DNA from: Patescibacteria group bacterium
GTDB taxonomy: Bacteria; Patescibacteriota; Microgenomatia; 0-14-0-10-38-17
DNA: 64,000 nucleotides
Assembly: GCA_050953885.1 (NCBI GenBank)
Contig: JBMNNJ010000001.1
Location: 143,437-207,436, forward strand
Direction of reading: 5' to 3'
Every line of letters starts with the position of its first letter. The stretch's first letter is position 1. A program made the position numbers and the translations under genes. This document shows positions 12,568-47,638 of this stretch, one piece after another. Below the pieces are notes generated by a model. The model did no database searches and was not told the DNA's origin. It saw only the letters and a list, made by a program, of their open reading frames with translations.

Positions 12568-12572
12568 AGATT

Positions 12573-15233: not shown

Positions 15234-15268
15234 ACCGCCAAAATTTGAATAGTTTAAGTTTTAGAAAG

Positions 15269-16555: not shown

Positions 16556-16577
16556 GCAGTTTTTAAATAAAAAATTC

Positions 16578-17663: not shown

Positions 17664-17667
17664 ACGA

Positions 17668-18498
17668 ATGAGCATAATAGAAAAATTTTTATCATTGCTT
17701 TTTACATTGTTGACCAACCCCAAGATCTTAGTAGTAAAAACAATGAGGCCTTTATTTTTTTTGCCCTTTACCCTAAGGCTTAAGTTTGATGCCGTTAGCC
17801 GCCCACACTACGCTTACTGTCTTTTTCAAGCAGCAAAAGAGGCAAAGGCCTTAGGAATAAATAGAATAAGTGCTATAGAATTTGGTGTGGCTGGTGGGCA
17901 GGGAATAATGGCGATGGAAAAATTATCCAGCGAAATAGAAAAAATTACGAAGGTAAAAATTGATATTTACGGTTTTGATCTAGAAAGAGGCTTACCTAAA
18001 CCTAAAGATTTTCGTGATTTACCCTATGTTTGGAAATCGGGATTTTATAAAATGAATTACAAAAAATTATCTGAATGTTTAACTAAGGCCAAGCTTATCT
18101 TAGGAGACGTGAAAGAAACGACTCCTAAGTTTATCAAAAAGAACATTGCCCCAATAGGATTTATTGCCTTTGATTTAGATTATTATTCTTCAACAAGAGA
18201 GGCTTTTAAGATTTTTGATGCGAACAGGGAGAAATTACTGCCAAGGGTTTTTTGCTATTTTGACGACACTATTGGCCCAGATGAAGAGCTTCATTCAAGT
18301 TATACAGGAGAGCTTCTGGCTATTAAAGAATTTAACAGAAAAAATAAGAGTAAAAAGATTTGTAAAATTAACGGGCTTATTTATAAAAGGAAAGTTCCAA
18401 AAGGGTGGAATGAACAGGTCTATATATTACACTTATTTAATCACCCTTTGTATACTGAATACATTTATCCAGGTAATGATAGGCAATTAATAATTTGA
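17668..18498 (+). CDS. Hypothetical protein, possible TylF/MycF-like class I SAM methyltransferase
   Basis: IEFGVAGGQGIMAME (G-rich motif). FDLDYYSST acidic motif. Weak. Confidence 0.35.
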   Translation: MSIIEKFLSLLFTLLTNPKILVVKTMRPLFFLPFTLRLKFDAVSRPHYAYCLFQAAKEAKALGINRISAIEFGVAGGQGIMAMEKLSSEIEKITKVKIDIYGFDLERGLPKPKDFRDLPYVWKSGFYKMNYKKLSECLTKAKLILGDVKETTPKFIKKNIAPIGFIAFDLDYYSSTREAFKIFDANREKLLPRVFCYFDDTIGPDEELHSSYTGELLAIKEFNRKNKSKKICKINGLIYKRKVPKGWNEQVYILHLFNHPLYTEYIYPGNDRQLII

Positions 18499-18508
18499 AA
18501 AAATAAAA

Positions 18509-19399
18509 ATGCCTAAAAAAGAAAAAATCGCCGCCAATGTGGTTACTTACAACAGAAAAGATCTTTTAAGAGAATGCCTTAATTCTCTTTTAGCGCAGAC
18601 AAGAAAACCGAATTCAATCATCATCGTTGATAATAATTCTACTGATGGAACAAAAGAAATGGTAGAAAAAGAGTTTTTAGATAATCCGATTTTTGATTAT
18701 GTGAGACTAAACGAGAACACCGGTAGCGCGGGAGGCCAATATACCGGCATCAAAAGAGCCTACGAAAAAGGTTTTGACTGGGTTTGGTGTATGGATGATG
18801 ATGCGACACCAAAAAAACAATGTTTAAAGAATTTGCTTGTTTCTAAAGAAAGCTGTAAAAAGGCAAAAGTATTAGTTCCAGTTAAGATTAGCATAAACGG
18901 TAATGAACAAGGGTCTCATGTGGGCGTTTTTTCTAGCCCCTTCTTGCGTATTAAGCCAGCAAATAGGTCTTCCAAATTAATTGAATTTAGTTCGTTTGTT
19001 GGTCCATTATTCAGTAAAGATGTTATACGAGAAATTGGTTTACCAAACAAAGACCTATTTATTTGGCATGATGATTATGAGTATTTTTTAAGAATAAAAA
19101 CAGCCGGATTTAAAACTTATCTTGTTGATAGTGCGGTTGTCATTCATAACGACGACTATGGGAGACAAAAGAAGAAGCAATTGGGTTGGAAGAATTATTA
19201 TGGTTGGAGAAATAAATTCTATATTAAAAAGAAATATTGTAAGCCTTTTTGGTTTTATTTGTATTTAGTGGTTTTTTTATTATGGCAAACTTCTGAAATA
19301 ATTTTTGTTTATCATCAACCAAAATATATAGAAACCTTGAGTAAAGCTCTTCTTAATGGCCTAAATGGTAAGCTGGGCTTTATTGGTTTTGATATTTAA
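18509..19399 (+). CDS. GT2 glycosyltransferase (candidate galactofuranosyltransferase, next to glf)
   Basis: ANVVTYNRKDLL...IIIVDNNSTDGT...WCMDDDA (DxD). Confidence 0.7.
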   Translation: MPKKEKIAANVVTYNRKDLLRECLNSLLAQTRKPNSIIIVDNNSTDGTKEMVEKEFLDNPIFDYVRLNENTGSAGGQYTGIKRAYEKGFDWVWCMDDDATPKKQCLKNLLVSKESCKKAKVLVPVKISINGNEQGSHVGVFSSPFLRIKPANRSSKLIEFSSFVGPLFSKDVIREIGLPNKDLFIWHDDYEYFLRIKTAGFKTYLVDSAVVIHNDDYGRQKKKQLGWKNYYGWRNKFYIKKKYCKPFWFYLYLVVFLLWQTSEIIFVYHQPKYIETLSKALLNGLNGKLGFIGFDI

Positions 19400-22388
19400 C
19401 TTCATAAAGGGTGAATTTATTGATAGTGGCAAAATTTCTGTAATTTTCTTTTATGGTTTGATTTATTTCGCTATTGTTCTGATCAAAGCTTTCTTCTAAA
19501 AAAGTCCATGAAGTTATTCTGCCAGATCCTACAACATACCTAGGTCTTTGTTCCTGAATGTTTACTGCTATTTCTTTTTTCGAAAAACAAAATTTGGCAT
19601 TATCACCCTCTTGGCAGAAGAAAGGAACCCCCGTATCCCTATAAACCCAGGGAGAAGTTATCTTTAATATATTAGTAGGTCTTACTTCCGCCGCCAGCGC
19701 CGTATCGGCAGTGAAAATTAAATCTGTTTCCGATGTTTTTTTGTTTACGAACTCAACAACCTCCTGTAAGTCTTGGTAGCTATAGACAACGGCATTATCT
19801 ACTTTTTTTGTTTGAGAAATAATATTGCTAAAAAGTAGACTTGCAAAAAGCAGATAAGCAAAAGGTTTCGCTGTTTTAGCTTTTGTCAGGAATGGTGACA
19901 AAAAAGATATTACAAGGGGAAATAAAAACGACATCATGGCGGGGCTATGATTAATATCATTTGGTGAGCTACCACCGCTTAACAACCGAACATAGTAGGC
20001 AAAATAAGAAAAATTAAGAATAATAGATAGAAAAATTATATTTTCGTCTTTGATTGCTTCATTCTTTTTTTTCAAGATTTCCCCCTTCAACAGGAGAAAA
20101 AGCGCTAATAAAAATGTTAACAGGGCAATAATATGACAATAAAAGTTATAGTAAACAAATTTTTCTGTACCGACAGATATTAGTGAAAGATAAAATAAAT
20201 AAATAAATAATAAAATTAATGACGATTTTTCTAATAATCTCTTTCTAGAAATTAAAAATATTAAAAAGAAAATTAATATAGAAAAATAGCCGTTTTCTAA
20301 TACTGTGTTTGGCCAAAAAGAGGATATGAAACTATTTTTAAATAATTGAGATGTCACTGCTATATAGAGAAAAAGGCCAACGGATGAAAACATCCAGCTT
20401 AGATAAACTATGCTTTTAATTTTAAATTTTTTTGAGATCGTTTTGACAACGGGGATTGTTACAAGTAAAACAAGAGAAATTTTTTGATATAGGATTACAT
20501 CGTTCCAAACATAGGTAATTAAGTTGTTAATAGGGGATCCTAACAGATTAAATAAAAGAATTATTAAACCTGAAGACAGAAAGTAAAAAATAAAATAAAG
20601 TAATATTTTCGAAAATCGTTCTTCGTCCTTAAGATATCTAACTGCTTCTATATAAAAAAGAGAAAGAAAAATTAACAATCCGCCCTTATAAGTAAATGTA
20701 CTTATTGCAACGATAATGGACGATATAAAAAATGCCGACGGAATATTTTTTTTAAGGTATAAGAAGAATAGTGAAACAGAAGTAATTGAAAATATTTGAA
20801 AAAATACTTTATCTAATCCAAGGTTAATGGGGTTAATTATTTTGGAAAAGATTGAAGATATCGCAAGAAATAAAAAAGCACTTTTTTTATCAGTTGCTTT
20901 TTTTATTATTAGATAATTTAGGGCTAAAAAAAGAATTTGGTAAAAGACGACTAGTGTTCTTTGATTCTTTATGGTTGTTTTTAAGAAAGAAAAAAATGGT
21001 CTTATCATAAGCAAAGAACCGGGTTCTCTAAACCAAAAGTCATCATATAAATTAAGTTCTTCTTTCATCATTCTAATTGCGTATAAGGAGTGTCCCTCGT
21101 CGGAACCAATATCGGCAGTGGTTATTTGAGAAGTTTGATTAGAAATAAAAGTGAGAAAAAGCAAGGCAATAATTATCCAATTGGGCTGTTTCGCCCCCTT
21201 TTTTAGAAAAAATGAAGAAATAAAGAATAAAATTATTAAAAATCCCTCTATGATTATTTTTCGATTTAAGATAGTTAAGTTCAGACACGGTATTATGATA
21301 AGTGCTGCTAATGAAAGATAAGGCATTATTTTTATAATTCTTGTTTTTGTTTTTGTATTCTTAGAAACATAAAAGTAGACAACAGTTTCTAGCGTTAAGA
21401 AAAGAGTAGCAAGACTAGAGAAAGAGAGGCCGTTGTTTATAGACTTACTTACTTTTTTTAGAATATTTTCCCAAATCGATCCGATATTATTTTTCAGCTC
21501 CCCCTTATTGTAAACATACCTTGAATAAAGATAAGGTTGGTTGTTTTTATCAACCGAGGCAAAAACATAAAGGGCGGGGGTTTCTTCGTCGGGTTGCTTT
21601 TTGCCGGCTAATTCTACCAGATAGGTTTTGCTTTCGGATTCTTCAATTATAGGAAAACCAAAGGGGTAAAGATGGCTAGGAGCGGCTTGGTCAAAATAAT
21701 AGGTGTTTTCATAAAACCAGTTCTCGGCACCTTTTTCCTTAATGCGGAAAATGATTTCGGCCGGTTCATAATAGGCGATTTCTTCAAGGGGTTCTTCTTC
21801 GGCCAGATCGTCTTGGCCGATAGGTTGCTCTTTTTGGGTTTCCTGGTCGATTATTTCTTCCTCTATTTCCTCTTCCGGCTTTATCTCTATAATCTCCCCT
21901 TCTTCATTAAAGCCCAAAGCCTTTTCTTGAACCGAGAGTTTAACTCCCATCGTGCCCAAATTATTGGAATCGGCCGTAAATTCTTGGGAAATGAGCGTGT
22001 TTTCCACCAAAGGAACTTCTTTGGCGGCTTTAAAGCTTTTCGGGTGGCTTTCGTAAACCAGTGGCGAGCCGTACTGGAAAATAGCGTAGCCCACCAAAAA
22101 AGTTAGGATTAAGAGGAGATTGACGCCGGTGAGAAGGAGAAATTTCTTGGCGCTTTTAGAATGGGGGAAAAGATAAACTAAAAAAGCGACAATCTGACGC
22201 CAATTAATTAAAGCAACAAAAATAACCAGCCAAAAAGCAGCGCGGTTAAGTTGCGGTTGGCTAATACCTAAAGAAAACGAAAAAAAAGAGGCCAGGCGGG
22301 TAAAAAGCGTTAAAAGAAGTAAAGAGAAGGCAAGAGCATTAAAAAAGCGGCGCAGTTTTGGGAAAAAAGAAGGCTTTTTTAAGTCCAT
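19380..22388 (-). CDS. Very large (about 1000 aa) polytopic membrane protein with ArnT/PMT-like GT-C core and N-terminal acidic extension
   Basis: More than 15 TM segments. DEGHSLYAIRMM loop motif like the other GT-C proteins here. Glu-rich spacer EEEIEEEIIDQETQKEQ in the N-terminal 300 aa. Confidence 0.45.
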   Translation of the reverse strand: MDLKKPSFFPKLRRFFNALAFSLLLLTLFTRLASFFSFSLGISQPQLNRAAFWLVIFVALINWRQIVAFLVYLFPHSKSAKKFLLLTGVNLLLILTFLVGYAIFQYGSPLVYESHPKSFKAAKEVPLVENTLISQEFTADSNNLGTMGVKLSVQEKALGFNEEGEIIEIKPEEEIEEEIIDQETQKEQPIGQDDLAEEEPLEEIAYYEPAEIIFRIKEKGAENWFYENTYYFDQAAPSHLYPFGFPIIEESESKTYLVELAGKKQPDEETPALYVFASVDKNNQPYLYSRYVYNKGELKNNIGSIWENILKKVSKSINNGLSFSSLATLFLTLETVVYFYVSKNTKTKTRIIKIMPYLSLAALIIIPCLNLTILNRKIIIEGFLIILFFISSFFLKKGAKQPNWIIIALLFLTFISNQTSQITTADIGSDEGHSLYAIRMMKEELNLYDDFWFREPGSLLMIRPFFSFLKTTIKNQRTLVVFYQILFLALNYLIIKKATDKKSAFLFLAISSIFSKIINPINLGLDKVFFQIFSITSVSLFFLYLKKNIPSAFFISSIIVAISTFTYKGGLLIFLSLFYIEAVRYLKDEERFSKILLYFIFYFLSSGLIILLFNLLGSPINNLITYVWNDVILYQKISLVLLVTIPVVKTISKKFKIKSIVYLSWMFSSVGLFLYIAVTSQLFKNSFISSFWPNTVLENGYFSILIFFLIFLISRKRLLEKSSLILLFIYLFYLSLISVGTEKFVYYNFYCHIIALLTFLLALFLLLKGEILKKKNEAIKDENIIFLSIILNFSYFAYYVRLLSGGSSPNDINHSPAMMSFLFPLVISFLSPFLTKAKTAKPFAYLLFASLLFSNIISQTKKVDNAVVYSYQDLQEVVEFVNKKTSETDLIFTADTALAAEVRPTNILKITSPWVYRDTGVPFFCQEGDNAKFCFSKKEIAVNIQEQRPRYVVGSGRITSWTFLEESFDQNNSEINQTIKENYRNFATINKFTLYEVKYQNQ

Positions 22389-22454: not shown

Positions 22455-22545
22455 ACTGGTAACTAACGCAGATTCTGACTTTCGTCAGAATGACAGAAAA
22501 GTGCCAGAATGACAATTACGATTATCGTCAAAATGACGGAGCAAG
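22455..22545. repeat. Family-A hairpin repeat block abutting the 3' end of the paralog gene
   Basis: aacgcagattctgactttcgtcagaatgac... The gene stop lies at the repeat boundary. Confidence 0.8.
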
Positions 22546-23151
22546 CTCTCCCGGATCACGGATGGTGAAGGGAAGGCGGTCACTTTCCCGGCCATCATAT
22601 TTTTTAACATACAAGTCGCCTTTAAAAAAACGAGGCGGGTGGGGCTGAACGGCAACAATTTTTTCTTCCCCCCATTCTTTGATTTGAAATTCAAGGTCGT
22701 CAACAAAAACTTTTCCCGGTTGCCAAGCGGGCCCAAAATTTTTGCCTTCAATAATAATTTCCATCCCCACCATTGACCAATTGATCTCTTTTGGCTCACC
22801 CACCGTGGCCCATGAAGAAAGAATTCGGTAAATTTTTGGCTCTTCCTGTAGACGCTGGTAAAAATCAGTATAGACACGGTTAACCACCAAACCCACCAAC
22901 AAGGCGGTGAAAAAAACCGGCCAAAATTTAGCACCAACTTCCCTTGCCCGACGGGAAAAATAGTTAACCGAAAAGACTGCCAAAAAAACCGCCAGAAGCA
23001 AAAAGGTTTTTTGAGACGAGGAAATATGCTTTAAAACCAAAAATTTTTCCGTTAAAAGATATTCGGCGGGAATAATTAAAAGAAAGTAGAAAATAATGGT
23101 TTGGGCAACCACAAGCAGGTTAGGGAGAAGAAATTTTTTAAAAAAAGCCAT
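22528..23151 (-). CDS. Small membrane protein (3 N-terminal TM helices plus C-terminal domain), tandem paralog 1
   Basis: 207 aa, about 90% identical to the 23409..24032 product. Confidence 0.55.
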   Translation of the reverse strand: MAFFKKFLLPNLLVVAQTIIFYFLLIIPAEYLLTEKFLVLKHISSSQKTFLLLAVFLAVFSVNYFSRRAREVGAKFWPVFFTALLVGLVVNRVYTDFYQRLQEEPKIYRILSSWATVGEPKEINWSMVGMEIIIEGKNFGPAWQPGKVFVDDLEFQIKEWGEEKIVAVQPHPPRFFKGDLYVKKYDGRESDRLPFTIRDPGELAPSF

Positions 23152-23225: not shown

Positions 23226-23440
23226 TGGTAACTAACGCAGATTCTGACTTTCGTCAGAATGACGGTTAGAGGAAGCACCAGGATGACGACGGTCGCGCCG
23301 TCATTCCGGACTTGATCCGGAATCTGTGCTATTGCCAGAAAACGCAGATTCTGACTTTCGTCAGAATGACGGCTAGGGGAAGCGTCAGAATGACGGTTAC
23401 GATTAGCGTCAGAATGACGGAGCAAGCTCTCCCGGATCAC
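23226..23440. repeat. Family-A composite repeat block between the tandem paralogs
   Basis: Contains the H1, H2 and gtcagaatgacg modules. Confidence 0.85.
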
Positions 23441-24032
23441 GGATGGTGAAAGGGAGGCGGCTACTTTCCCGACCATTATATTTTTGAACATACAAGCCGC
23501 CTTTAAAAAAATGGGGCGGGTGGGGCTGAATAACAATAATTTTCTCTTCTCCCCATTCTTTGATTTGAAATTCAAGGCCGTCAACAAAAACTTTTCCCGG
23601 TTGCCAAGCGGGCCCAAAATTTTTACCGTCAATAATAATTTCCATTCCCACCATTGACCAATCAATCTCTTTTGGCTCACCCACCGTGGCCCATGAAGAA
23701 AGAATTCGGTAAATTTTTGGCTCTTCCTGTAGACGCTGGTAAAAATCAGTATAGACACGGTTAACCACCAAACCCACCAACAAGGCGGTGAAAAAAACCG
23801 GCCAAAATTTGGCGCCAATTTTCCTTACCCGGCGGGAAAAATAGTTAACCAAAAAGACCGTTAAAAAAACCGCCAAAAGCAAAAAAGTTTTTTGAGACGA
23901 GGGAATATGCTTTAAAACCAAAAATTTTTCCGTTAAAAGATATTCGGCAGGAATAATTAAAAGAAAGTAGAAAATAATGGTTTGGGCAACCACAAGCAGG
24001 TTGGGGAGAAGAAATTTTTTAAAAGAAAACAT
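23409..24032 (-). CDS. Small membrane protein, tandem paralog 2
   Basis: 207 aa. Same architecture and same repeat-abutted 3' end as paralog 1. Confidence 0.55.
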   Translation of the reverse strand: MFSFKKFLLPNLLVVAQTIIFYFLLIIPAEYLLTEKFLVLKHIPSSQKTFLLLAVFLTVFLVNYFSRRVRKIGAKFWPVFFTALLVGLVVNRVYTDFYQRLQEEPKIYRILSSWATVGEPKEIDWSMVGMEIIIDGKNFGPAWQPGKVFVDGLEFQIKEWGEEKIIVIQPHPPHFFKGGLYVQKYNGRESSRLPFTIRDPGELAPSF

Positions 24033-24054: not shown

Positions 24055-24215
24055 TCGGGGAATACGTAACTAGTAACTGGTAATACATAACTAGTAACTG
24101 GTAATACGTAACTAGTAACTCGTAATACGTAACTAGTAACTGGTAATTCGTAACTCGTAACTGGTAATTCGTAACTAGTAACTGGTAATACGTAACTCGT
24201 AACTGGTAACTAACG
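24055..24215. repeat. GTAACT-type minisatellite (7-bp units NGTAAYW with 21-bp higher-order period, about 8 periods)
   Basis: gtaactagtaactggtaatac repeated. Shorter arrays at 22430-22455, 23170-23225, 4617-4672 and 50590-50690. Confidence 0.85.
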
Positions 24216-24535
24216 CAGATTCTGACTTTCGTCAGAATGACGGCTAGGGGAAGCGTCAGAATGACAATTACGATTAGCGTCATTCTGAACTTGATTCAGA
24301 ATCTGTTTTAAAAAAAACTAAAACGCAGATTCTGACTTTCGTCAGAATGACAGAAAAGCGGCAGGATGACAACAGTCGTGCCGTCATTCCGGACTTGATC
24401 CGGAATCTGTATTATTGCCAGAAAACGCAGATTCTGGCTTTCGCCAGAATGACAAAAAAACGTCAGAATGACAAAGAAGCATCAGAATGACGGTTAGGGG
24501 AAGCATCAGGATAACGTCCTTATTATCAAGAAGCC
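24215..24535. repeat. Family-A composite repeat array
   Basis: H1, H5 (cattctgaacttgattcagaatc) and H2 modules. Confidence 0.85.
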
Positions 24536-24539: not shown

Positions 24540-25235
24540 TTAGAAACTTTCGTTAACCGCTTCTAAGGCAAAAGGAAGGCCGGAAAAGGGCTTGTGGGGG
24601 CTATCCTTTTTGGCAAAAACTAAAGCCGTTTCCCGATCTCCCATAAAATGCCAAATTAGTTTTAAATCTTTTAAAAGAGAGAGGTTTTCTTGAACAGAAC
24701 GAGAATAAACTTGAGTATGGTTGCGGCGAGATTCGCGGGCAGACCGAAAAGAAGGCAAAAAAGAAACTAAAGGTTCAGAAAAAATGCTTACCACCACTCC
24801 TTCTTTAGTTAAGGTTCGTCCGGCTTCTTTGCCAAAACAAGATAATTTTTCGTTATCCATAAAACTGGTGGTGCCGTCAAGCCAAATAAGATCAAGGCTC
24901 TCGTTGGCAAAGGGCATCTTGGCCAAATCGGCTTGAACACGAAAAAGCTTTTTTTCCTTCGAAGGCAAGGGAAGGCTAGCTTTTTCAAACGGCTGACGAT
25001 TAAAATCAAGAAGATAAATTTCATCTTTTTTTTGGGGCCGAAAATAACCGCAGTCGTTAATAAAAGCGGCCGCGGTGGAGCTGTGGGGAGAAAACCCGCC
25101 CAAAACCAACCTTAAACTTTCTTTTTTAGCTAAAGGAGAGCAAGAGGATTCCTTTAAAACCCTCTTAAGTAAGCCACGGCCAAGGCGGCAGTAGTAAGAC
25201 TCCGGGCAGATTTGGTAATACTCTTTCCACCCCAT
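24540..25235 (-). CDS. Hypothetical protein, possible class I SAM-dependent methyltransferase
   Basis: LVLGGFSP (G-rich) and DLIWLDG motifs. Weak. Confidence 0.35.
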   Translation of the reverse strand: MGWKEYYQICPESYYCRLGRGLLKRVLKESSCSPLAKKESLRLVLGGFSPHSSTAAAFINDCGYFRPQKKDEIYLLDFNRQPFEKASLPLPSKEKKLFRVQADLAKMPFANESLDLIWLDGTTSFMDNEKLSCFGKEAGRTLTKEGVVVSIFSEPLVSFLPSFRSARESRRNHTQVYSRSVQENLSLLKDLKLIWHFMGDRETALVFAKKDSPHKPFSGLPFALEAVNESF

Positions 25236-25919: not shown

Positions 25920-26429
25920 ATGAAGAAAAAATATCTTCTTATTATTCCCTTGATTTTAATAACCATCGCGGCGATTGCCGCGGTAGCTTTTCCAAGAGGA
26001 AATCAGCCTGCTTTTCCGCCTAAAGAAGAAACTAACTTTTTTAAAGACGGTGAAAAAATTAAGCTTTTGGTTGAAAACGTTGAATTTGAGTCAGAGGTAG
26101 TTAAAAACCCGGCGGCGCGAGCCAAAGGCTTGGGGGGAAGAAGCGATCTTTGCCCTCAATGCGGAATGCTTTTTATTTTTGAAGCCGATGGCAACCATGC
26201 TTTTTGGATGAAAGACACGCTTATCCCCTTGGATATTATTTGGCTTGATAAAAATTGGCAGGTGGTGGATTTTGTTGCCTTTGCCCAGCCGCAGGCAGGC
26301 CGCCCTGATGAGGAATTGCCTGTTTACCGCCCAAAAACCCCTGCCCGCTATGTTTTGGAACTGCCGGGAGGGACGGTGGAAAAAATCAGGGGGTTTAAAA
26401 TTGGCAGTCGGGTGGAATTAGAAAAGTAA
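25920..26429 (+). CDS. DUF192-domain secreted/membrane-anchored protein
   Basis: N-terminal TM segment. GMLFIFEADGNHAFWMKDTLIPLDIIWLD matches the DUF192 core. Confidence 0.7.
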   Translation: MKKKYLLIIPLILITIAAIAAVAFPRGNQPAFPPKEETNFFKDGEKIKLLVENVEFESEVVKNPAARAKGLGGRSDLCPQCGMLFIFEADGNHAFWMKDTLIPLDIIWLDKNWQVVDFVAFAQPQAGRPDEELPVYRPKTPARYVLELPGGTVEKIRGFKIGSRVELEK

Positions 26430-26465: not shown

Positions 26466-26650
26466 AGCAAAGTTAGATCCTGACTTTCGTCAGGATGACA
26501 CTAACCGCCATTCTGAACTTGATTCAGAATCAGTCTTAAAAAAACTAAAACGCAGATTCTGACTTTCGTCAGAATGACAGTTAGGGGAAGCGTCAGAATG
26601 ACAGAAAAACGTCAGAATGACAATTACGATTAGCGTCATCCTGATAAGAA
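26466..26650. repeat. Family-A composite repeat block
   Basis: H1/H5 modules. Nearly identical to 24280-24360 and 29385-29460. Confidence 0.85.
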
Positions 26651-26680: not shown

Positions 26681-27076
26681 ATGAGTGAAAAAGAAATTTG
26701 GGAGCAAAAAAGCTTTGCTGATTTTGGCGGCGATGCCAAAGAAAGCAAAGAAGCCTCAAATTACTACTTAATCCCCAAAGGAACGATTGTTTGGCCCCAA
26801 AAGGAAGGGGGGATTATTAACTACTATCGCGGCGCGCTTATCGAAAGCGCCTTAGCCACGCCGGTTTTTGAAGAAACTGAAGATAAAAAACAAAAAAGAG
26901 AAAAAGGTTTATTATTTTGGGAATTATTGGGAACAAGTCGCGAATTGCCTGACGGCTCAATAGTGGTAAAAAATAACGCCACTTTATATTTCGACGGTCG
27001 TTATTGGCAAATTAAATCAGGAGACGTTATTGCCACCGACTCAAAAAAAGAAAATAAGATTAGCAAAATCAAATGA
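26681..27076 (+). CDS. Hypothetical protein
   Basis: 131 aa. Translationally coupled (ATGA overlap) to the downstream GT4. Confidence 0.45.
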   Translation: MSEKEIWEQKSFADFGGDAKESKEASNYYLIPKGTIVWPQKEGGIINYYRGALIESALATPVFEETEDKKQKREKGLLFWELLGTSRELPDGSIVVKNNATLYFDGRYWQIKSGDVIATDSKKENKISKIK

Positions 27077-28206
27077 TTATCGGTGTTGATGGCAATGAAG
27101 CCAATACAGAAAAAAGAGTCGGGGTGGGTCAGTATTCTTTAGCGCTTCTTGGCTTTTGGCAAAAGTGGGCCAATAGGGAAAATCAATTTTGGGTTTATCT
27201 TCACGGCCCGGCTAACCAAAAAGTTCTTCCCCCTCCTTGTCCTTATTTTTCCTACCTTTCCTTTGGCCCCCAAAAGTTTTGGACCCAATTTGCTCTGCCG
27301 GCCAAACTTTATTCCCAAAAAGAAAAGCCCCATGCCTTTTTTTCTCCCGCTCATTATTCTCCCCGTTTTTCACCAATACCCACCGTTTTAACTATCCACG
27401 ACCTTGCCTTTTTTTACTACCCCAAAGAGTTTAAAACCCGCGATCTTTGGCAATTAAAACGCTGGACAGCTTATTCGGTTAAAAAAGCCCAAAAAATTAT
27501 TGCCGTTTCGCAAAACTCCAAAAATGATTTAATTCGTTTCTATGGCTTGCCGGAGGAAAAAATTAGCGTTGTTTACAACGGCTATGACCGGGAAAGATTT
27601 TCCCCCAAAAAAAATAAAAGAGAAATCGGCAGAGTGCGGAAAAAATACCAAACCGGCGCCGATTATCTTCTTTACGTGGGCACTCTTCAGCCCCGAAAAA
27701 ACATTATCAGCTTAATTAAAGCCTTCCCTTTTATCTTAAATCAAGATCAGCGCCGCCGCAAAACCTTGAAGCTGGTGATCGCCGGCAAAAAGGGCTGGCT
27801 TTATGAAAATCTTTTTAACACGGTACGAGAATTAAAGCTAACCGAAAAGGTTATTTTTACCGATTTTGTTGCCGACGAGGATTTGCCCTATCTTTTAAGC
27901 GGCGCCAGGCTCTTTGTTCTTCCCTCCTTGTATGAAGGCTTTGGCCTCACCGCTCTTGAGGCGATGGCCTGCGGCGCGCCGGTTTTGGTTTCCAAAAACT
28001 CTTCTTTACCGGAGGTGGTGGGAGAAGCCGGCCTTTATCTTGAAAACCCCGAGGATTTACAAGAAATTAGCCAAAAAGTGGGGCAAATTCTTGATAGCCG
28101 CGATTTGGCGGCAAGCCTTGCCAAAAAAGGCTTGGAGCAAGCCCAAAAGTTTTCTTGGGAAAAATGCGCAAAAGAAACGCTGGAAATTATTAAAAAGACA
28201 ACGTAA
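27073..28206 (+). CDS. GT4 glycosyltransferase
   Basis: [28 protein letters not shown]. Confidence 0.85.
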
Positions 28207-28439
28207 CTATTGTTCTCGCCTTAAATTTGGAGTCAGAGTTGATTATTTAAAGTTAAAAGTCAAAATTCAAAAGTCAAAAGTGCAAGTCAAAATTAAAAAG
28301 TAACGTCACCCCTGAATTAGATTCAGGATCAGGCTCTGAGCTTGATTCAGAATTTTGCGTGAAATGCCTGAAATGTATGAGACGTTTGAAACGTAAAAAC
28401 ATTAAACGATTCAGGCGATTCAAACCTCAAGCGTTTCAA

Positions 28440-28880
28440 GCATCAAGCTTTAAGGCCGATCCTGACTTTCGTCAGAATGACGGTTAGGGGAAGCGTCAGG
28501 ATGACGACAGCCGTGCCGTCATTCCGGACTTGTCCCGCCATAGCGGGATCCGCCTCAGGCAGAATCCGGAATTTATGTTATTGTAAGAAAACGCAGATCC
28601 TGACTTTCGTCAGGATGACGGTTAGGGGAAGCGTCAGGATGACGATAACCGTGCCGTCATTCCGGACTTGATCCGGAATCTGTGCTATTACCAGAAAACG
28701 CAGATTCTGACTTTCGTCAGAATGACAAAAAAAACGTCAGAATGACGATAACCGTGCCGTCATTCCGGACTTGATCCGGAATCTGTGTTATTACCAGAAA
28801 ACGCAGATCCTGACTTTCGTCAGGATGACAAAAAAAACGTTAGGATGACGATTAGTGAAAGCGTCAGGATGACGGTTACG
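28440..28880. repeat. About 4 tandem units (about 110 bp each) of the family-A composite hairpin repeat
   Basis: Each unit is gatcctgactttcgtcaggatgac-ggttaggggaagc-gtcaggatgacg-...-gtcattccggacttgatccggaatctgtgttattaccagaaaacgca. Unit 1 carries a nested ccgccatagcgggatccgcctcaggc insertion. Confidence 0.9.
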
Positions 28881-29178
28881 GAAATAATTCTGGCCACAAG
28901 TCCTTAAACTCAGGGTTACTTTTTCTAATTAATTCCAACTTCCATTCTCTTCGCCAACTTTTTAGCTGTTTTTCTCTCTTTATCGCTTCTTCTATGTTGT
29001 CAAAAACTTCAAAATAAAGAAGCTTGTTAAGATGATACTTTTTAGTAAAGCCTTCAACTAACTCCTCTTTATGTTGGCTAATCCGATGATAAAAATCGGC
29101 AGTTACTCCAATATAAAGGGTGGGGCGATCGTTACCCATAATATAAACAACAGCTTGCTTTTCCATTTTTAATTTCAA
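28876..29178 (-). CDS. GIY-YIG nuclease family protein (UPF0213/YhbQ-like)
   Basis: VYIMGNDRPTLYIGVTADFYHRISQHK (GIY...YIG). About 95 aa. Confidence 0.8.
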   Translation of the reverse strand: MKLKMEKQAVVYIMGNDRPTLYIGVTADFYHRISQHKEELVEGFTKKYHLNKLLYFEVFDNIEEAIKREKQLKSWRREWKLELIRKSNPEFKDLWPELFP

Positions 29179-29179: not shown

Positions 29180-29500
29180 AACTAAAACGCAGATCCTGAC
29201 TTTCGTCAGGATGACGGCTACGGGAAGCGTCAGAATGACAATAACCGTGCCGTCATTCCGGACTTGATCCGCCATAGCGGGATCCGCCTCAGGCGGAATC
29301 CGGAATCTGTGTTATTATCAGAAAACGCAGATTATGACTTTCGTCAGAATGACAAAAAAGCGTCAGGATGATACTGACCGTCATCCTGAACTTGATTCAG
29401 GATCTGTTTTAAAAAAACTAAAACGCAGATCCTGACTTTCGTCAGGATGACGGTTAGGGGAAGCGCCAGAATGACAGAAAAGCGTCAGGGTAACGCCTCC
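29180..29500. repeat. Family-A composite repeat array
   Basis: H1, H2 with nested H4, and H5 modules. Confidence 0.9.
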
Positions 29501-30603
29501 AAACTTTCCAAAACCTCTCGGGCGGTTTTTTGCCAAGAAAATTTTTGCGCCTGTTGAAGACCTTTTTTTATCATTTCCCCTCTTAATTTAGGATTATTGG
29601 CTATTTTTTCCATCGCCTTCCTAATCTCCTCGGATTTCTCGGGATTAACCAAAATTCCCGCCTCTCCGGCCGCCTCGGGAAGACTGGAGACATTGCTGGT
29701 AATAACCGGCGCACCAGAGGCCATTGCTTCCAAAATCGGCAAGCCAAAGCCTTCGTAAAGCGAAGGATAAACAAAACAAAGAGCGCCGGCGTAAAGAGAA
29801 GGCAAATCCTCATCCGGCACATAACCTAAAAGTTTTAAATTTTTAGTTGCCGACTTTAAACTCTGATCGCCCCAACCTGTTTTGCCGACAATTGCTAATT
29901 GCCACCCTCTTTTATTTTCCAAACCGTCAAAAGCCTCAATTAAACGTGGCAAATTTTTGCGTGGTTCCCGCGTTCCTACCGCCAAAAAATAATCACCAAG
30001 CCCATATTTTTTCTTCACCGCTTTTATTTTCCCCTCGCCTTGGGGGCAAAAATGGCGATGATCCACTCCGGGATAAACCACTTTAATTTTCTCTTTGTTA
30101 AGATCAATTATTTTTTCCAAATCGCGCCTCGTGCTTTGAGAACTAGCAAAAACCAAATCGGCTTCTTTTTTTACCCATTTCATCCGGTTTTTATGAGCGT
30201 TAATTATCTTTTCAGGCAGAGTTTGCGGGTATTGCCAAGGAACTAAATCATGGACAACGGTAACCAACTTGGCTTTTTCTGCCGGCGGCTGGGTCCAGTC
30301 GGAAGCAAAAAAAATATCCACTTTTCCCACCAGCGTTTCCACCGGCAAAAGATGGGTTCGGTTCCAAAACCAGTCTAAGAGAGTAGGGGGGTAGGGAACA
30401 ATTTTGGCTTTTACCCGACCGGGATATTTCTTTTGTAGTTTCCTCGCAAAATTGATAAGGATTTGTTTTTGCCGCAGGGAGCCGCCAAAAAGAAGATAGC
30501 GGTTTTTTTTATCGACAACCAAAAGGTTTTCCACCAAATTTTTGGCGTAAACGCTTACCCCCGTACCGTAAACAATTTGGGAAATATCAACGGCAATGGT
30601 CAC
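29485..30603 (-). CDS. GT4 glycosyltransferase
   Basis: [36 protein letters not shown] start likely. Confidence 0.85.
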
Positions 30604-30816
30604 GGAAAAAAAATTATTAAACTATTAAATAGCTTAATTACTAAAAATTCAAAATGCAAAAGTCAAAAGTCAAAATTTAAAGTCAAAAGTCAAAAGTTTT
30701 TGTTTCACTTTTTAATTTTAACTTTTGAATTCCCTATGGGGGAAGAAATATGCACCTAAAAAATAAACGAGAAAGCAGAGAAAATCACCAATCGATTTTT
30801 TCTATTTTACCATTTT

Positions 30817-32867: not shown

Positions 32868-33010
32868 ACAAATTCAAATCTCAAATCTCAAAACTCAAAA
32901 CTACAACTCAAAACTTAAATCTAAAAAAAACAACTTTAAGCTTTAAAAAGTTTTAACATTTACCATGTAGTTTTGAGTTTTAACATTTGAGTTTTAACAT
33001 TTTAGCTTGC
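32868..33010. repeat. Family-B MITE-like element (acaactcaaaac...ttttaacatttaccatgtagttttgagtttt)
   Basis: Four copies in the window: 32868-33010, 40590-40760, 50856-51015 and 54660-54745. Imperfect terminal inverted repeats caaaactcaaaac/gttttgagtttt. Confidence 0.75.
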
Positions 33011-33071
33011 ATTTTAAGTTTATTTTCTTGTCCATTCGTTTCTCATTCGTGTTAATTCGTGTCTTTTAGCA

Positions 33072-34247
33072 ATGAAGCAATCTAAACCCATTTTATCAAT
33101 CATCATCGTCTCTTATAACACCAAGGAACTGTTGAAAGAATGCCTTGATTCCGTGGCTAAATCATTAGCCAGCGCTAATTTTAAAAGCAACCAAGAAAAG
33201 ATCCTGAATCAAGTTCAGAATGACGCTAATCGTAACCGTCATCCTAACTCCTCTCGCCGTCATCCTGACGATCCGCCAGCTGGCGGACAGGATCTGCCCT
33301 TGTCATTAACACAGATTCCGGATCAAGTCTGGAATGACAGTTTCCAAGTTCGTTACCCTGACTCTTCTCACCGTCATCCTGATGATCCGCCAGTTGGCGG
33401 ACAGGATCTACCCTTGGCCGAAATCATCGTTGTTGACAATAATTCCCGCGACGATTCGGTAGAAATGCTTGAAAATTTAAAATTGAAACTTGAAAATTCA
33501 ATGAAAATTGAAAATTTAAAATTGAAAATTATTATTAATAACGATAATCTTGGCTTTGCCAAGGCTAATAATCAGGGGATAAAAATAGCCGAAGGAAAAT
33601 ATGTCCTGCTTTTAAACTCCGATACTAAAATTGTTGAAGATAATTTTTTCCCAAAAATTATTAGTTTTTTGGAGAAAAATTCTGCGGTGGGAATTTTAGG
33701 ACCAAAACTAATTTGGGAAGACGGTAAAATTCAACCCTCGGGTGGTTATTTTCCTACTTTAGGTCGCCTCTTTGCCTGGGCTTTTTTCTTGGACGATTTA
33801 CCGGGCCTTTCAAAAATAATTAAAGCCTACCATCCCCACCCTAAGGACTGTCAAAAACCTCAAAGGCAAGACTGGGTTACCGGCGCCTGTTTCTGGGTGA
33901 AAAAGGAAGTTTTTGATAAAATAGGAATGCTTGACGAGGATTTTTTTATGTATGTGGAAGAACTGGAATTTTGTTTTCGCGCTAAAAAAGCGGGGTTTGA
34001 GGTGATTTATTATCCTCAGGCGAAACTTATTCATTACGGCGGGAAAAGCGGCACCGCTTTTAATACTGTTATAGGTGAATTTAAAGGCTTAAAACTTTTT
34101 TACCAGAAACACCAGCCGGCCTGGCAAAAACCGTTCCTAAATTTCCTCCTTAAGGCGGCCGCTTTTAACCGTTTTTTTTTCTTAGGAATTTTGGGGGGAA
34201 ATAAAGAAAAAAAAGAAATTTATCGAAAAGTTTTGGAAAGCAAGTAG
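33072..34247 (+). CDS. GT2 glycosyltransferase carrying an in-frame insertion of about 75 aa derived from family-A hairpin repeats
   Basis: N-terminus ILSIIIVSYNTKELL and EIIVVDNNSRDDS are split by NRNRHPNSSRRHPDDPPAGGQDLPLSLTQIPDQVWNDSFQVRYPDSSHRHPDDPPVGGQDLP. The DNA at 33196-33418 consists of the H5, H1+H3 and H2 repeat modules. Confidence 0.8.
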   Translation: MKQSKPILSIIIVSYNTKELLKECLDSVAKSLASANFKSNQEKILNQVQNDANRNRHPNSSRRHPDDPPAGGQDLPLSLTQIPDQVWNDSFQVRYPDSSHRHPDDPPVGGQDLPLAEIIVVDNNSRDDSVEMLENLKLKLENSMKIENLKLKIIINNDNLGFAKANNQGIKIAEGKYVLLLNSDTKIVEDNFFPKIISFLEKNSAVGILGPKLIWEDGKIQPSGGYFPTLGRLFAWAFFLDDLPGLSKIIKAYHPHPKDCQKPQRQDWVTGACFWVKKEVFDKIGMLDEDFFMYVEELEFCFRAKKAGFEVIYYPQAKLIHYGGKSGTAFNTVIGEFKGLKLFYQKHQPAWQKPFLNFLLKAAAFNRFFFLGILGGNKEKKEIYRKVLESK

Positions 34248-39317: not shown

Positions 39318-40514
39318 ATGAAACAATCGCCTGTTTTACTTTCCATCATCATCGTCTCTTATAATACCCGGGAGCTTTTGGAAAAATGCCTTGATTCCGT
39401 GATCAAATCATTAGCCGGCTCTAATCTTAAAAGCAACCAAGAAAAGATCCTGAATCAAGTTCAGGATGAGGCTAATCGCAACCGTCATTCTGACTCCTCT
39501 GGTCGTCATCCTGACCCCGCCAAGGGTGGGGCTAACCGTCATCCTGACGAAAGTCAGGATCTCTCCTTGTCATTAACACAGATTCCGGATCAAGTCCGGA
39601 ATGACAGTTTCCAAGTTCGTTACCCTGACTCTTCTCACCGTCATCCTGACGATCCGCCAGCTGGCGGACAGGATCTGCCCGCCGAAATCATCGTTGTTGA
39701 TAATAATTCCCGCGACGATTCGGTAGAAATGCTTGAAAATTTAAAATTGAAACTTAAAAATTCAATGAAAATTGAAAATTTAAAATTGAAAATTATTGTT
39801 AATAACGATAACACTGGCTTTGCCAAGGCTAATAATCAGGGGATAAAAATAGCCGAAGGAAAATATGTCCTCTTTTTGAATCCGGATACGATTGTTTTAC
39901 CCGAAACACTTCCTTTTATGCTTGAATTTATGAAAAAAAACCCCGCGGTAGGCGTGGCCACCTGTCGGGTAGAGCTTGTTGATGGAAAGCTGGACGAGGC
40001 TTGCCATCGGGGTTTTCCCACTCCCTGGAATGCCTTTTGCCATTTTTCGGGTTTGGAAAAACTTTTCCCCCATTCCCGACTTTTTGCCGGTTATTATTTA
40101 GGATATTTGGATCTTAACACCACCCACGAAATCGATAGTTGCGTCGGCGCGTTTATGTTAGTCCCTCGCCTGGTGGGCGAAAAAATCGGCTGGTGGGATG
40201 AAGATTATTTTTGGTATGGCGAGGACATTGATTTTTGTTATCGAGTGAAAAAGGCGGGTTTTAAGGTGATGTTTGTACCAAAAGTAAAAATCATCCATTA
40301 TAAAGGCGCCTCATCGGGAATTAAAAAAACCAAAAGCAAAGCCGACTTTAAAACACAAGAGAAGGCCATGCTTGCTTCAACCCAGGCGATGCGGATTTTT
40401 TACCAAAAACATTACCGGGGAAAATATCCTAAGCCCGTTGAGAAACTCGTTTTTTGGGGAATTAGTTTGCTTGAAAAAGCAAGGGTGAGAAAAATAAAAA
40501 AACAAAATGGCTAA
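39318..40514 (+). CDS. GT2 glycosyltransferase, paralog of 33072..34247, with in-frame repeat-derived insertion (about 80 aa)
   Basis: LSIIIVSYNTRELL ... NRNRHSDSSGRHPDPAKGGANRHPDESQDLSLSLTQIPDQVRNDSFQVRYPDSSHRHPDDPPAGGQDLP ... EIIVVDNNSRDDS. The DNA at 39436-39678 is hairpin repeat modules. Confidence 0.8.
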   Translation: MKQSPVLLSIIIVSYNTRELLEKCLDSVIKSLAGSNLKSNQEKILNQVQDEANRNRHSDSSGRHPDPAKGGANRHPDESQDLSLSLTQIPDQVRNDSFQVRYPDSSHRHPDDPPAGGQDLPAEIIVVDNNSRDDSVEMLENLKLKLKNSMKIENLKLKIIVNNDNTGFAKANNQGIKIAEGKYVLFLNPDTIVLPETLPFMLEFMKKNPAVGVATCRVELVDGKLDEACHRGFPTPWNAFCHFSGLEKLFPHSRLFAGYYLGYLDLNTTHEIDSCVGAFMLVPRLVGEKIGWWDEDYFWYGEDIDFCYRVKKAGFKVMFVPKVKIIHYKGASSGIKKTKSKADFKTQEKAMLASTQAMRIFYQKHYRGKYPKPVEKLVFWGISLLEKARVRKIKKQNG

Positions 40515-40759
40515 ATTGCGCAAAAATCTCAAAACGCAAATATCAAAAATAAAAACCTAATTCAAAATTCAAAAATAATAAATAAACTCAAATGTTAAAT
40601 CGCAAAACTCAAAACTACAACTCAAAACTAAAATCTAAAAAACAACTTTAAGCTTTAAAAAGTTTTAACATTTGCCATGTAGACCTGCCTTGCCGGCAGG
40701 CAGGTTTGCCATTTGCGTTTTGAGTTTTAAGCTATGGTTTTGGTCTTTGAGCTTGGTTT

Positions 40760-40960
40760 TGCTCCGCCAGCTGGCGGATTCATCAGAATGACGGCCACGA
40801 TTAGCATCATTCTGAACTTGATTCAGAATCGTTATTAATCTCTGAAGAACGCAGATCCTGACTTTCGTCAGAGCCTGTCCTGAATTTAATTCAGGAATGA
40901 CAGCTACGGGGATGATCCTGTCCGCCAGCTGGCGGATTAAATTTTAACTTTTGACTTTTT
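40760..40960. repeat. Family-A repeat block (H3 tccgccagctggcgga, H5, H1, H6 cctgaatttaattcagg)
   Basis: Seen directly. Confidence 0.85.
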
Positions 40961-43930: not shown

Positions 43931-43965
43931 AATGAAACAATGAAACAATGAAACAATGAAACAAT
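43931..43965 (+). repeat. 4.5 tandem copies of the 8-bp unit CAATGAAA abutting the manC start codon
   Basis: caatgaaacaatgaaacaatgaaacaatgaaacaatgctc. Each unit encodes an ATG-AAA-CAA-TGA mini-ORF. The last copy (tga to tgc) opens the ManC frame. Confidence 0.85.
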
Positions 43966-47630: not shown

Positions 47631-47638
47631 AATAAAAA

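Follow-up and report, generated by a model that had tools for sequence, protein, structure and literature searches.

The 64-kb stretch of DNA analysed here (hereafter the window) is chromosomal, with genes for IleRS, GlyRS, RodA, PBP2, RsmH, MraZ, L21/L27, ParB and RecO, and is interspersed with short hairpin-forming repeats in which a preliminary description had distinguished six modules, H1 to H6. The two densest arrays of these repeats, array A (28440 to 28880, the one flagged in that description) and array B (29180 to 29490), enclose a small gene on the minus strand (28876 to 29166) that had been overlooked. It encodes a 96-aa single-domain GIY-YIG protein of the Ssn type, the presumed partner of the hairpins. 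Array A lies downstream of this ssn-type gene and convergent with a glycosyltransferase gene of family GT4 (27073 to 28206); array B lies directly upstream of it and downstream of another GT4 gene (29485 to 30603, minus strand). The IleRS of the window is closest to proteins of Shapirobacteria and Microgenomates (57-63% identity), and the best match of its GlyRS in the one-genome-per-species GTDB shows 59% identity, the listed matches being mostly Patescibacteria with some metagenome-assembled genomes (MAGs) labelled as other phyla. Together with the affinities of the Ssn-type protein, these relationships identify the host as a Microgenomates-group bacterium of the Candidate Phyla Radiation (CPR).

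Searching for a short tag followed by a perfect hairpin recovered a common plan for H1, H2, H5 and H6: a (C/T)GTC tag, a stem arm of AT plus 6 bp, a loop, a return arm of 6 bp plus AT, and a C. On the minus strand H1 reads CGTC-ATCCTGAC-GAAA-GTCAGGAT-C, with a 4-nt loop (CGTC-1 type), and on the plus strand H2 reads CGTC-ATTCCGGA-CTTGA-TCCGGAAT-C, with a 5-nt loop (CGTC-2 type), so that the tags of H1 and of H2/H5 stand on opposite strands. H5 follows the plan of H2 with stem arms ATTCTGAA/TTCAGAAT and the loop CTTGA; H6 is a further 5-nt-loop variant (CGTC-2 type) with the loop TTAAA. Four natural stem variants occur in the window (ATCCTGAC, ATTCTGAC, ATTCCGGA and ATTCTGAA). All stems are of 8 bp, and their first two pairs (AU, UA) are invariant in both alignments described below. 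Among 29 perfect family hairpins the tag is CGTC in 17 and TGTC in 12; one variant copy carries CGCC and one CATC. The 3' tail reads C-TG(C/T) in the window, while the same H1 in contigs of high G+C content has a CCAG tail.

With up to two mismatches allowed, the window holds 22 copies of H1 (GATYCTGACTTTCGTCAGRATGAC), 20 of them on the plus strand, and 15 copies of H2/H5 (GTCATTCYGRACTTGATYCRGAATC), against a chance expectation of zero for both in 100 dinucleotide shuffles. There are also four loop-expanded copies and at least 22 half-sites. H3 is present in six exact copies and H6 in two, plus one variant. The preliminary description had reported modules at 15 loci; they are present at every one of them and at two more (28311 and 54744), which bears out the modular hairpin family, although not every module sequence as it was typed: H1 as given there ('gaatctgac...') has no exact match, the actual sequence being GATTCTGAC..., and H4 is a consensus of which the window has near-copies only, with 1-3 mismatches each. 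The fixed spacers it had named exist as exact copies, four of GGTTAGGGGAAGC and two of TTAAAAAAACTAAAACGCA. Tandem amplification of composite units, likewise proposed there, is seen in array A as a tandem of period 103 with 2.8 copies and 87% matches (28564 to 28852, Tandem Repeats Finder), and a direct-repeat search gave unit spacings of 103, 128 and 138 nt.

The amplified unit is an inverted heterodimer with its tags outside and a conserved spacer of about 23 nt, CGTC-H2/H5 - CTGTGYTATTRYCAGAAAACGCA - H1-GACG. About 15 of these H2/H5-spacer-H1 heterodimers lie in the window, with conserved spacers L1 and L2. Where dimers meet with their tags inward, the joints vary and are built from half-sites (CGTCAGRATGACG), which comprise the tag and the 5' arm of H1 and often follow one another in tandem, at a period of about 24 nt. 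The G+C-rich palindromes H3 and H4 are placed inside hairpin loops. The 31-nt double hairpin H4 always sits between the CTTG and the A of the H2/H5 loop (28533, 29266, 43797, 51317), giving a three-way junction, and H3 takes the place of the loop in H1-type stems at 33266, 39647 and 48316. Folded as single-stranded DNA (ssDNA), one unit is multi-branched (-25.7 kcal/mol, z -5.8). Array A comprises four H1 copies with the tag on the minus strand (28458, 28596, 28703, 28806), two H2 copies with the tag on the plus strand (28656, 28759), one H2 with the 31-nt loop insert (28517 to 28573), half-sites and linker L1. Array B comprises H1 at 29192, 29330 and 29428, H2 with the 31-nt loop insert at 29251 to 29306, and H5 at 29380.

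GIY-YIG is the sole Pfam domain of the 96-aa protein (E 3.6e-14). By BLASTP it shares 48% identity with the 94-aa SsnA orthologue of Neisseria gonorrhoeae (E 4e-33, 93/96 residues), and the equivalents of Y6, Y17 and E64 are conserved as the Y, Y and E of VYI..., TLYIG and REKQ. Chenal 2025 counted as ssn the genes for single-domain GIY-YIG proteins of <150 aa with a blastp E < 1e-10 and >=75% coverage (PMC11893778); scored against the N. gonorrhoeae orthologue, the 96-aa protein lies within these bounds. A total of 1460 homologues was found, the closest named ones being from Levybacteria and Gottesmanbacteria; searches returned no sequence relative in the PDB and no NCBIfam match. The ssn ATG is preceded at 23 nt, on the sense strand of the gene, by the end of a complete tagged H1, the array B copy running from 29216 to 29189, which reads CGTCATCCTGACGAAAGTCAGGATC. 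On the other side, half-sites start 3 nt past the ssn stop and full hairpins follow within 50 nt. Hairpin motifs are therefore present within 500 bp on each side of ssn, 5' and 3', this being the distance used by Chenal 2025, in whose survey 42% of ssn homologues were flanked by motifs on both sides in an arrangement like that of an insertion sequence (IS) (PMC11893778).

The characterised member of this family, SsnA, is a 94-aa single-domain GIY-YIG nuclease that binds its motif exclusively as ssDNA and exclusively on the tag strand, and whose cut, dependent on orientation, falls a few nucleotides upstream of the motif (PMC11893778). Its target is the oriented form of the Neisseria repeat dRS3, called NTS (CGTCATTCCCGCGMAVGCGGGAATCYRG), and the related motifs of other bacteria are the Ssn-related motifs (SRM) (PMC11893778). 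The enzyme of N. meningitidis requires the palindrome for binding and does not bind RNA, and in that species the Ssn system restricts transformation by NTS-bearing DNA (PMC11893778). A tblastn search of the annotated collection located the N. gonorrhoeae locus on two chromosomes (filed there as plasmids). There, 16 tagged hairpins, nine being canonical NTS, surround the gene for the 94-aa protein in a stretch of 3.3 kb. The repeats of the window had initially been called far denser than known elements; the gonococcal locus is locally denser. A variant of the Neisseria hairpins, GGATTCCCACTTTCGTGGGAATGACGG, departs from H1 in the stem centre alone.

The hairpins themselves belong to a class defined in 2013, the CGTC-tagged repetitive extragenic palindromes (REPs). 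These have the tag CGTC (with TGTC and CCTC variants), a stem of 8-9 bp starting with A-T and T-A, a short tail (mostly CCA), and a loop of 4 nt in family 1 and of 5 nt in families 2-4 (PMC3733652). They occur in high copy number mainly as tags-outside (HH) dimers with conserved spacers, frequently as heterodimers, and mostly between unidirectional or convergent open reading frames (ORFs), with occasional intragenic clusters of up to 82 codons and with stop codons supplied by the repeats (PMC3733652). CGTC-1 is equated with dRS3 of Neisseria, and CGTC-1 and CGTC-4 with RPE-6 and RPE-4 of Rickettsia; no REP-associated tyrosine transposase (RAYT) was linked to CGTC REPs and their associated enzyme was not known in 2013 (PMC3733652). 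The hairpins of the window agree with this class in tag, stem, loop classes, HH dimers with conserved spacers, and gene context. We consider it very likely that the modules are CGTC-tagged REPs and Ssn-related motifs at once, and that they belong with the ssn gene lying between their densest arrays.

Several points weigh against this assignment. The main hairpins of the window fall outside the published degenerate SRM search string, HGTCWYN(0-2)YYVSBRHN(0-5)WNVSBRGN(0-2)RNCYNB, which has a single match in the window (24454, minus strand); H1, H2 and H5 fail because their stems have A/T where the string demands G/C. That string is a search heuristic drawn from 29 genomes of 4 phyla and not a definition (PMC11893778). 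The published census would have missed the repeats of the window, and the text of PMC11893778 has no mention of Patescibacteria. Placing the 96-aa protein in the Ssn family relies on sequence comparison with the N. gonorrhoeae orthologue rather than with SsnA of N. meningitidis. That one enzyme serves all four stem variants is an assumption, and changing the palindrome while keeping the hairpin abolished the activity of the N. meningitidis enzyme (Chenal 2025, PMC11893778). Finally, H3 and H4 have no clear tag and may be a separate element. In its favour, a scan of the window at the Rfam gathering thresholds returned tRNA-Val only and no family for the repeats.

The likeness to the Neisseria NTS/dRS3 system extends from the hairpin (the CGTCAT tag, an 8-bp stem starting with AT, a 4-nt loop, and ATC after the stem) to the locus, with alternating orientations, dense clusters on both sides of a single-domain GIY-YIG gene of about 95 aa, degenerate half-sites beside full hairpins, and clusters around surface-structure genes. 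The window differs in the A/T-richer centres of its stems (CTGAC, CGGA and TGAA versus CCGCG), in the pairing of the 5-nt-loop H2/H5 with the 4-nt-loop type in fixed heterodimers, and in the share of intragenic copies (2 of 17 window loci versus 2% of N. meningitidis NTS copies). With CGTC-1 and CGTC-2 of Di Nocera 2013 it shares the rules for tag, stem and loop, the presence of a short tail, the HH dimers and heterodimers, the gene context and the intragenic clusters, and many high-GC contigs contain the exact H1 24-mer in homodimers that have CCAG tails. However, in the window the tail is C-TG(C/T) instead of CCA, dimers of mixed family-1 and family-2 type are the rule, and the host phylum is outside the five listed in 2013.

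The initial comparison with REP/BIME and Rickettsia RPE elements was apt, since CGTC-tagged REPs include RPE-4 and RPE-6 as well as dRS3 (PMC3733652). In their organisation, RPE-4 and RPE-6, of the same superfamily, likewise form in-frame palindromes in genes that add a peptide and leave the ORF intact; the window differs in that each of its two paralogous GT2 genes carries a composite cluster of about 85-90 aa as its insert, and its host is not an obligate intracellular alphaproteobacterium. With REPIN/RAYT and E. coli REP/BIME systems the window has in common short hairpins arranged as inverted dimers and mosaics, one small gene (for a nuclease or transposase) that its own repeats flank, and, as predicted, recognition as an ssDNA hairpin with an unpaired tag; the tag is CGTC and not GTAG, though, and the presumed partner is a GIY-YIG protein and not an HUH/Y1 transposase. 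The suggestion that the repeats are more modular than known elements does not hold, as heterodimers with conserved spacers, clusters and intragenic copies have been described for the CGTC-REP/SRM class. The class itself is already known, from the work of 2013 and 2025. What is new here is the Microgenomates-group CPR host, stems outside the published motif, obligatory heterodimers of 4-nt-loop and 5-nt-loop hairpins, palindromes nested in loops, and turnover at the strain level.

Covariation in the stems was judged from fixed-length alignments, an anchor-only pairing test and pair counting. In the H1 alignment (A1), with 98.1% of cells paired, both partners change at two pairs (C-G/T-A at pair 3, and A-T to G-C in the copy at 24430); in the H2/H5 alignment (A2), with 98.8% paired, they do so at three. 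None of 500 shuffles reached the observed pairing or covariation score, and sliding the partners by 1-3 columns lowered the pairing to 14-52%. In the anchor-only test, which is not circular, GTCAT...ATC was fixed and the six inner stem positions were left free. The inner stems in the window were then fully Watson-Crick in 19 of 24 cases with a 4-nt loop and in 11 of 15 with a 5-nt loop, and in none with loops of 3, 6 or 7 nt; at the other repeat-bearing loci the figures were 161 of 203 (loop 4) and 57 of 105 (loop 5). Over all loci, 63 distinct fully paired stems stand behind the same flanks. The compensatory changes from which selection had first been deduced do preserve the pairing, but since whole hairpins are copied along with their stem variants, the window offers few independent double-change events. 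The hairpin is under constraint. Given that SsnA of N. meningitidis needs the palindrome and does not bind RNA, an ssDNA hairpin is the most economical reading, and the stem constraint is best explained as a requirement for a DNA hairpin, not necessarily for an RNA hairpin.

Comparison with sister genomes makes clear that clusters are gained, lost and reshuffled on the time-scale of strains, being absent or rearranged in strains whose flanking genes are 95-99% identical. Across the genes at 43967-50549 the window shares 96.6-99% identity with four independent assemblies, and the alignment of all four breaks exactly at the RecO-GlyRS spacer (48171/48500). In the window this spacer (48172 to 48499) carries H3 and a half-site beside an H5-H1 dimer, in the four relatives 240 bp of unrelated, A/T-rich, module-free DNA; in a relative of 72% identity RecO and GlyRS overlap without any spacer. 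The window has 546 bp of spacer between the 247-aa gene and tRNA-Val, versus 98 bp in L227 and L228, the two assemblies that extend past the gene, and the extra DNA includes the cluster at 50695-50848. The H3 at 54744 is absent from the orthologous spacer of contig L223, which is 92-94% identical across IleRS-RodA-L21, and no SRM modules are present in the covered 156 bp upstream of the NTP-transferase gene in contig L226 (98.5% identical). A contig that is about 95% identical in ssn and GT4 has the same ssn-array-GT4 layout, with five dimers in another module composition and order; the GGC/GCC stem variant, found once in the window, occurs twice in its orthologous array.

The remaining clusters are spread over the window. 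An array at 1-300 has two H2-L1-H1 dimers and half-sites at the 3' end of a flippase-like gene (304 to 1539, minus strand). A single H1 at 4569-4592, tagged on the plus strand and with one pair mismatched, adjoins the heptamer array 4599-4667 and lies upstream of a GT2 gene (4686 to 5612). At 22471-22540, H1 is followed by half-sites, the last of which encodes the ...PSF-stop of ORF 22528-23151 (minus strand), and the cluster H1 - H2 - L1 - H1 with a half-site array of 24-nt period at 23240-23420 provides the stop of ORF 23409-24032 (minus strand). Three dimers at 24218-24520, among them the compensatory stem variant ATTCTGGC/GCCAGAAT (24430 to 24453), lie at the 3' end of gene 24540-25235 (minus strand) and abut a 21-copy heptamer array. 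H1 - H5 - L2 - H1 and half-sites (26476 to 26650) stand between a DUF192 gene (25920 to 26429) and ORF 26681-27076. Further on there are H3, a half-site, H5, an H1-like hairpin, H6 and H3 (40751 to 40937) between GT2 gene 39318-40514 and GT4 gene 40965-42179; H3, a half-site, H5 with the 31-nt loop insert, H1 and half-sites (43737 to 43925) upstream of an NTP-transferase gene (43956 to 45038); an H5-H1 dimer followed by H3 inside an H1-type stem and by a half-site (48248 to 48350) between RecO and GlyRS; an H3-like module, H6, H5, H1 and another H3-like module (50695 to 50848) between the 247-aa gene and tRNA-Val; a degenerate H5 with the 31-nt loop insert and H1 remnants (51315 to 51410, minus strand); and a solitary H3 palindrome, TCCGCCAGCTGGCGGA (54744 to 54759), between RodA and L21.

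Two paralogous clusters are intragenic. The one at 33196-33420 (minus strand), with H5, H2, half-sites and H3 nested in H1-type stems, lies in frame in the GT2 gene 33072-34247 (plus strand), and its counterpart at 39436-39690 (minus strand) lies in frame in the GT2 gene 39318-40514 (plus strand). The modules of both are translated, and the match to the Pfam GT2 profile stops after about position 23-27 and starts again at residue 111/121; this indicates an insertion of some 85-90 residues in the loop that follows the first beta-alpha unit. The two clusters differ by a 21-nt module swap and a 3-nt indel, and the reading frame is kept in both. Between the paralogues (33150-33640 versus 39400-39880) the repeat segment is about 95% identical, the coding flanks about 80% upstream and <60% downstream, a sequence pattern that suggests gene conversion across the module cluster. 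The modules had been said to lie precisely at gene 3' ends. This stands insofar as each intergenic cluster has at least one gene 3' end adjoining it, in a unidirectional or convergent context, but these two clusters are inside ORFs and several others abut 5' ends, being nearer to the start of the next gene (40937 versus the ATG at 40965; 43925 versus 43956).

Some further features of the repeat landscape may be recorded beside these clusters. The ORFs 22528-23151 and 23409-24032 (minus strand) are tandem duplicates in a repeat unit of 881 bp; both code for 207-aa predicted membrane proteins with no Pfam match, and both end in a hairpin half-site giving ...PSF-TGA. Tandem heptamer and octamer repeats are frequent in intergenic DNA (24066-24212, 28249-28301, 30644-30697, 32870-32927, 4599-4667 and 43930-43966), with units such as GTAACTA (x21), AAAGTCA, AAACTCA, CAATTAC, TTGAAAA and CAATGAAA. 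They often abut hairpin clusters, and they are in frame in both GT2 paralogues (33469-33530 and 39733-39794); the close strains L226 to L229 have different heptamer arrays in the same spacers. The heptamer arrays resemble the STRR repeats of cyanobacteria, though the host is a CPR bacterium. Families of 21-27-nt SDR elements, nested and accompanied by heptamer repeats, were reportedly described by Elhai in 2008 from heterocystous cyanobacteria. Such SDR elements, our first guess from the heptamer arrays and hairpins, were rejected, as the host is not a cyanobacterium and its housekeeping genes are of Microgenomates/CPR type. The palindrome GACCTGCCTTGCCGGCAGGCAGGT occurs at 40684-40707 and 50925-50948 inside a 95-nt dispersed repeat (40637-40731 and 50878-50972) that accompanies two hairpin clusters; a third, diverged copy lies at 32925-33019.

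A low-GC island at 9230-22388 (GC 0.30-0.34 versus 0.40-0.44 elsewhere in the window) carries polysaccharide genes (GT4, GT2, methyltransferase, DUF362, a Polysacc_synt flippase and a 1002-aa membrane protein) and is probably a recent acquisition. It contains no CGTC hairpin between 9230 and 22388, and hairpins stand at both of its borders (4569; 22471), an arrangement that fits gradual colonisation of resident DNA by the repeats. Just outside it are an AbiEii-type toxin gene with an adjacent unannotated ORF, possibly its antitoxin (7751-8473 and 8463-9038, both on the minus strand), and a staphylococcal-nuclease-like gene (6406 to 7110, plus strand).

Beyond the window, the exact 21-nt H1 core was found in at least 120 JGI metagenome contigs and 10 IMG/VR contigs, with G+C contents of 0.26-0.73, and in none of the 80 GTDB loci sampled around GlyRS. 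Among the matches listed, the core in high-GC contigs is usually part of tags-outside homodimers with CCAG tails. In four metagenome contigs (L104, L120, L139 and L176) an exact H1 has an Ssn homologue no more than 60 nt away. Comparison of the window by blastn with 130 H1-bearing loci gave repeat-to-repeat matches and one ssn homologue only, and no orthologous flanks. Three CPR relatives have tagged hairpins on the 5' and 3' sides of ssn, their stems being lineage-specific (ATCCTCGC, ATCCTGAA and others), and there are few further hairpin copies in the surrounding 20 kb. An ssn gene with flanking hairpins of lineage-specific stems is also present in replicons of Novosphingobium, Sinorhizobium, Aeromonas and Planktothrix. 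In Planktothrix agardhii plasmid p1 (L220, 1498-1782) the Ssn homologue, with hairpins of the TGTCATTCTGAGTGAAACGAAGAATC type, is part of a defence island, between an MmeI-type restriction-modification gene and the DISARM gene drmA. In the 938-kb contig of a relative (L214, GCA_030704665.1; locus 16590-19204) ssn is about 6.5 kb from DNA-uptake genes of the ComEA/ComEC type; this may be coincidence, but it is relevant to the role in restricting transformation known from Neisseria.

Tandems of truncated hairpins (tag plus 5' arm, period about 19-24 nt) adjoin a complete hairpin at 23359-23420, 24445-24491 and 28834-28884 of the window, and the same half-site tandems stand beside Ssn-type hairpins in L094, L173, L198, L207, L215 (about 9890-9990), L220 (about 1800-1900) and L213 (about 1400-1450). 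They recur in CPR bacteria (including Gottesmanbacteria), Neisseria, Planktothrix and high-GC metagenome contigs; as far as searchable, the texts of PMC3733652 and PMC11893778 contain no mention of tandem half-site arrays. Repeated rounds of cutting and repair upstream of the hairpin may have left them as a footprint.

The hairpins could instead be mainly RNA elements, either bidirectional intrinsic terminators or stabilisers of mRNA 3' ends, with the covariation reflecting selection on RNA and the ssn gene incidental. Every intergenic cluster adjoins a gene 3' end in a unidirectional or convergent context, as such elements would, and on the tag strand H1 is followed by CTGCGTTTT(C/A) and H2 by CTGTGTTATT, both of which are terminator-like. 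Terminator-like sites number 31 in 22-30 kb against 11.9 expected, many tag-strand loops are GNRA-like, and most REPs have been argued to be transcribed (PMC3733652). However, the T-tracts are weak and the hairpins score as weak terminators on both strands, the 4-7 hairpins of an array far exceed what termination needs, and there are clusters within ORFs and immediately upstream of start codons. Termination has no use for the conserved unpaired tag or its orientation, yet SsnA needs both for cleavage; strains of 97-99% identity manage without the clusters, and the repeats have no Rfam match. We consider a mainly RNA-based function unlikely, while noting that such a role is partly compatible with, and does not exclude, the hairpins acting as ssDNA.

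Less likely still is a purely mechanical origin of the stem changes, in which intrastrand template switching or gene conversion between arms or copies makes the changes and whole hairpins are then copied, so that the changes would be no evidence of selection. The window has only about five varying base pairs, in a few discrete stem types with many copies each. The occurrence of the GGC/GCC variant once here and twice in the 95% identical strain shows variants spreading as units, and related copies can outscore shuffles without any structural constraint (a caveat of the tool itself). Against this, 63 fully paired stems stand behind identical flanks while spacings of 3, 6 and 7 nt are unpaired, mutants of N. 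meningitidis SsnA show that the palindrome is needed for binding (PMC11893778), and a mechanism producing complementary arms would leave the retained tag, stem length and loop classes unexplained.

The one IS200/RAYT-like gene of the window codes for an IS200-like Y1 transposase (58910 to 59584, minus strand; 224 aa, Pfam Y1_Tnp E 1.7e-9), and the repeats might be REPIN/BIME-type elements mobilised by it. Their inverted dimers resemble REPINs, the protein scores 50.8 bits with the NCBIfam model REP_Tyr_transpos, and a 225-aa Y1_Tnp protein is encoded about 8.5 kb from ssn in Levybacteria contigs. We regard this as very improbable, however. The score is below the curated cut-off of 80, the tags of the window are CGTC and not GTAG, no RAYT has been linked to CGTC REPs (PMC3733652), and the element is an 878-bp insertion absent from the 92-94% identical contig L223. 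The gene is bracketed by a 53-nt hairpin (CCCGAGGTT...AACCTCGGG) that is found only there, in two copies; a RAYT/IS200 enzyme was rejected as the mobilising agent because this flanking hairpin is unrelated to the CGTC hairpins. The 53-nt hairpin, CCCGAGGTTCCTGCCTAATCAACCCCCGGAGTTGATTAGCTTGCAACCTCGGG, forms identical direct copies (58845-58897 and 59655-59707), and the 878-bp unit (58823 to 59700) is missing between MraZ and IleRS in L223, where the empty site reads TTTTCCCGAG|ATG.

That the repeats are an artefact of a chimeric or collapsed metagenome contig is ruled out by the strain comparisons: short-read contigs of relatives do often end at arrays (L002, 1.7 kb; L225, 2.6 kb; L231, 1.25 kb), but the GT4 gene 27073-28206 beside array A is found with its flanks on three contigs from independent projects, the orthologous ssn-array-GT4 locus was assembled with the same architecture from another sample, identical architectures exist in finished Neisseria, Sinorhizobium and Novosphingobium replicons, and module-bearing ORFs stay in frame.

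If the repeats are Ssn-related motifs, as we hold, the characterised Neisseria and Wolbachia homologues suggest how they would work. Where ssDNA is exposed (during replication, recombination or DNA uptake), the tag strand would fold into the hairpin, and Ssn would bind it with specificity for sequence, structure and orientation and nick a few nucleotides 5' of the tag. The compensatory stem changes would follow from this need for a DNA hairpin. By cutting incoming or exposed ssDNA close to the repeats, Ssn could modulate recombination around the surface-glycan genes that they flank; the placing of the window repeats around a glycosyltransferase and surface-polysaccharide region parallels that of the NTS clusters at surface genes of Neisseria. 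The IS-like SRM-ssn-SRM architecture, together with the nuclease, probably drives the spread and turnover of the repeats.

A stronger proposal is that Ssn is the engine that propagates CGTC hairpins in this Microgenomates lineage, with elements active now that leave footprints of cutting and copying ssDNA at exposed strands, including hairpin loops. Three features would be such footprints: the clusters present or absent, or reshuffled, among strains of 95-99% identity; the insertion of H3 and of the 31-nt H4 pair at one fixed loop position; and the tandem half-sites of about 24-nt period beside complete hairpins. We put it forward tentatively, and consider it doubtful in this full form. If true, Ssn would fill the role of the 'missing transposase' noted in 2013, and CPR genomes would be a natural system in which to watch it.

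The work traces the repeat landscape of an uncultured CPR genome to a system with a characterised enzyme, and it gives a candidate partner protein together with a set of substrates, namely four natural stem variants, loop-expanded forms and half-sites. Ssn enzymes are under development as site-specific cutters of ssDNA, and a candidate new pair of enzyme and site, of predicted distinct specificity, would be of practical value. For genome annotation it matters that the modules give rise to spurious ORFs, lengthen glycosyltransferases by about 85-90 aa and provide stop codons; that contigs break at the arrays matters for the assembly of MAGs. As the SRM string misses the A/T-richer members, the spread of the family has probably been under-counted, at least into Patescibacteria. 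The hairpin clusters are among the fastest-changing parts of the genome, and the strain comparisons that reveal this bear on whether Ssn drives the spread of its repeats.

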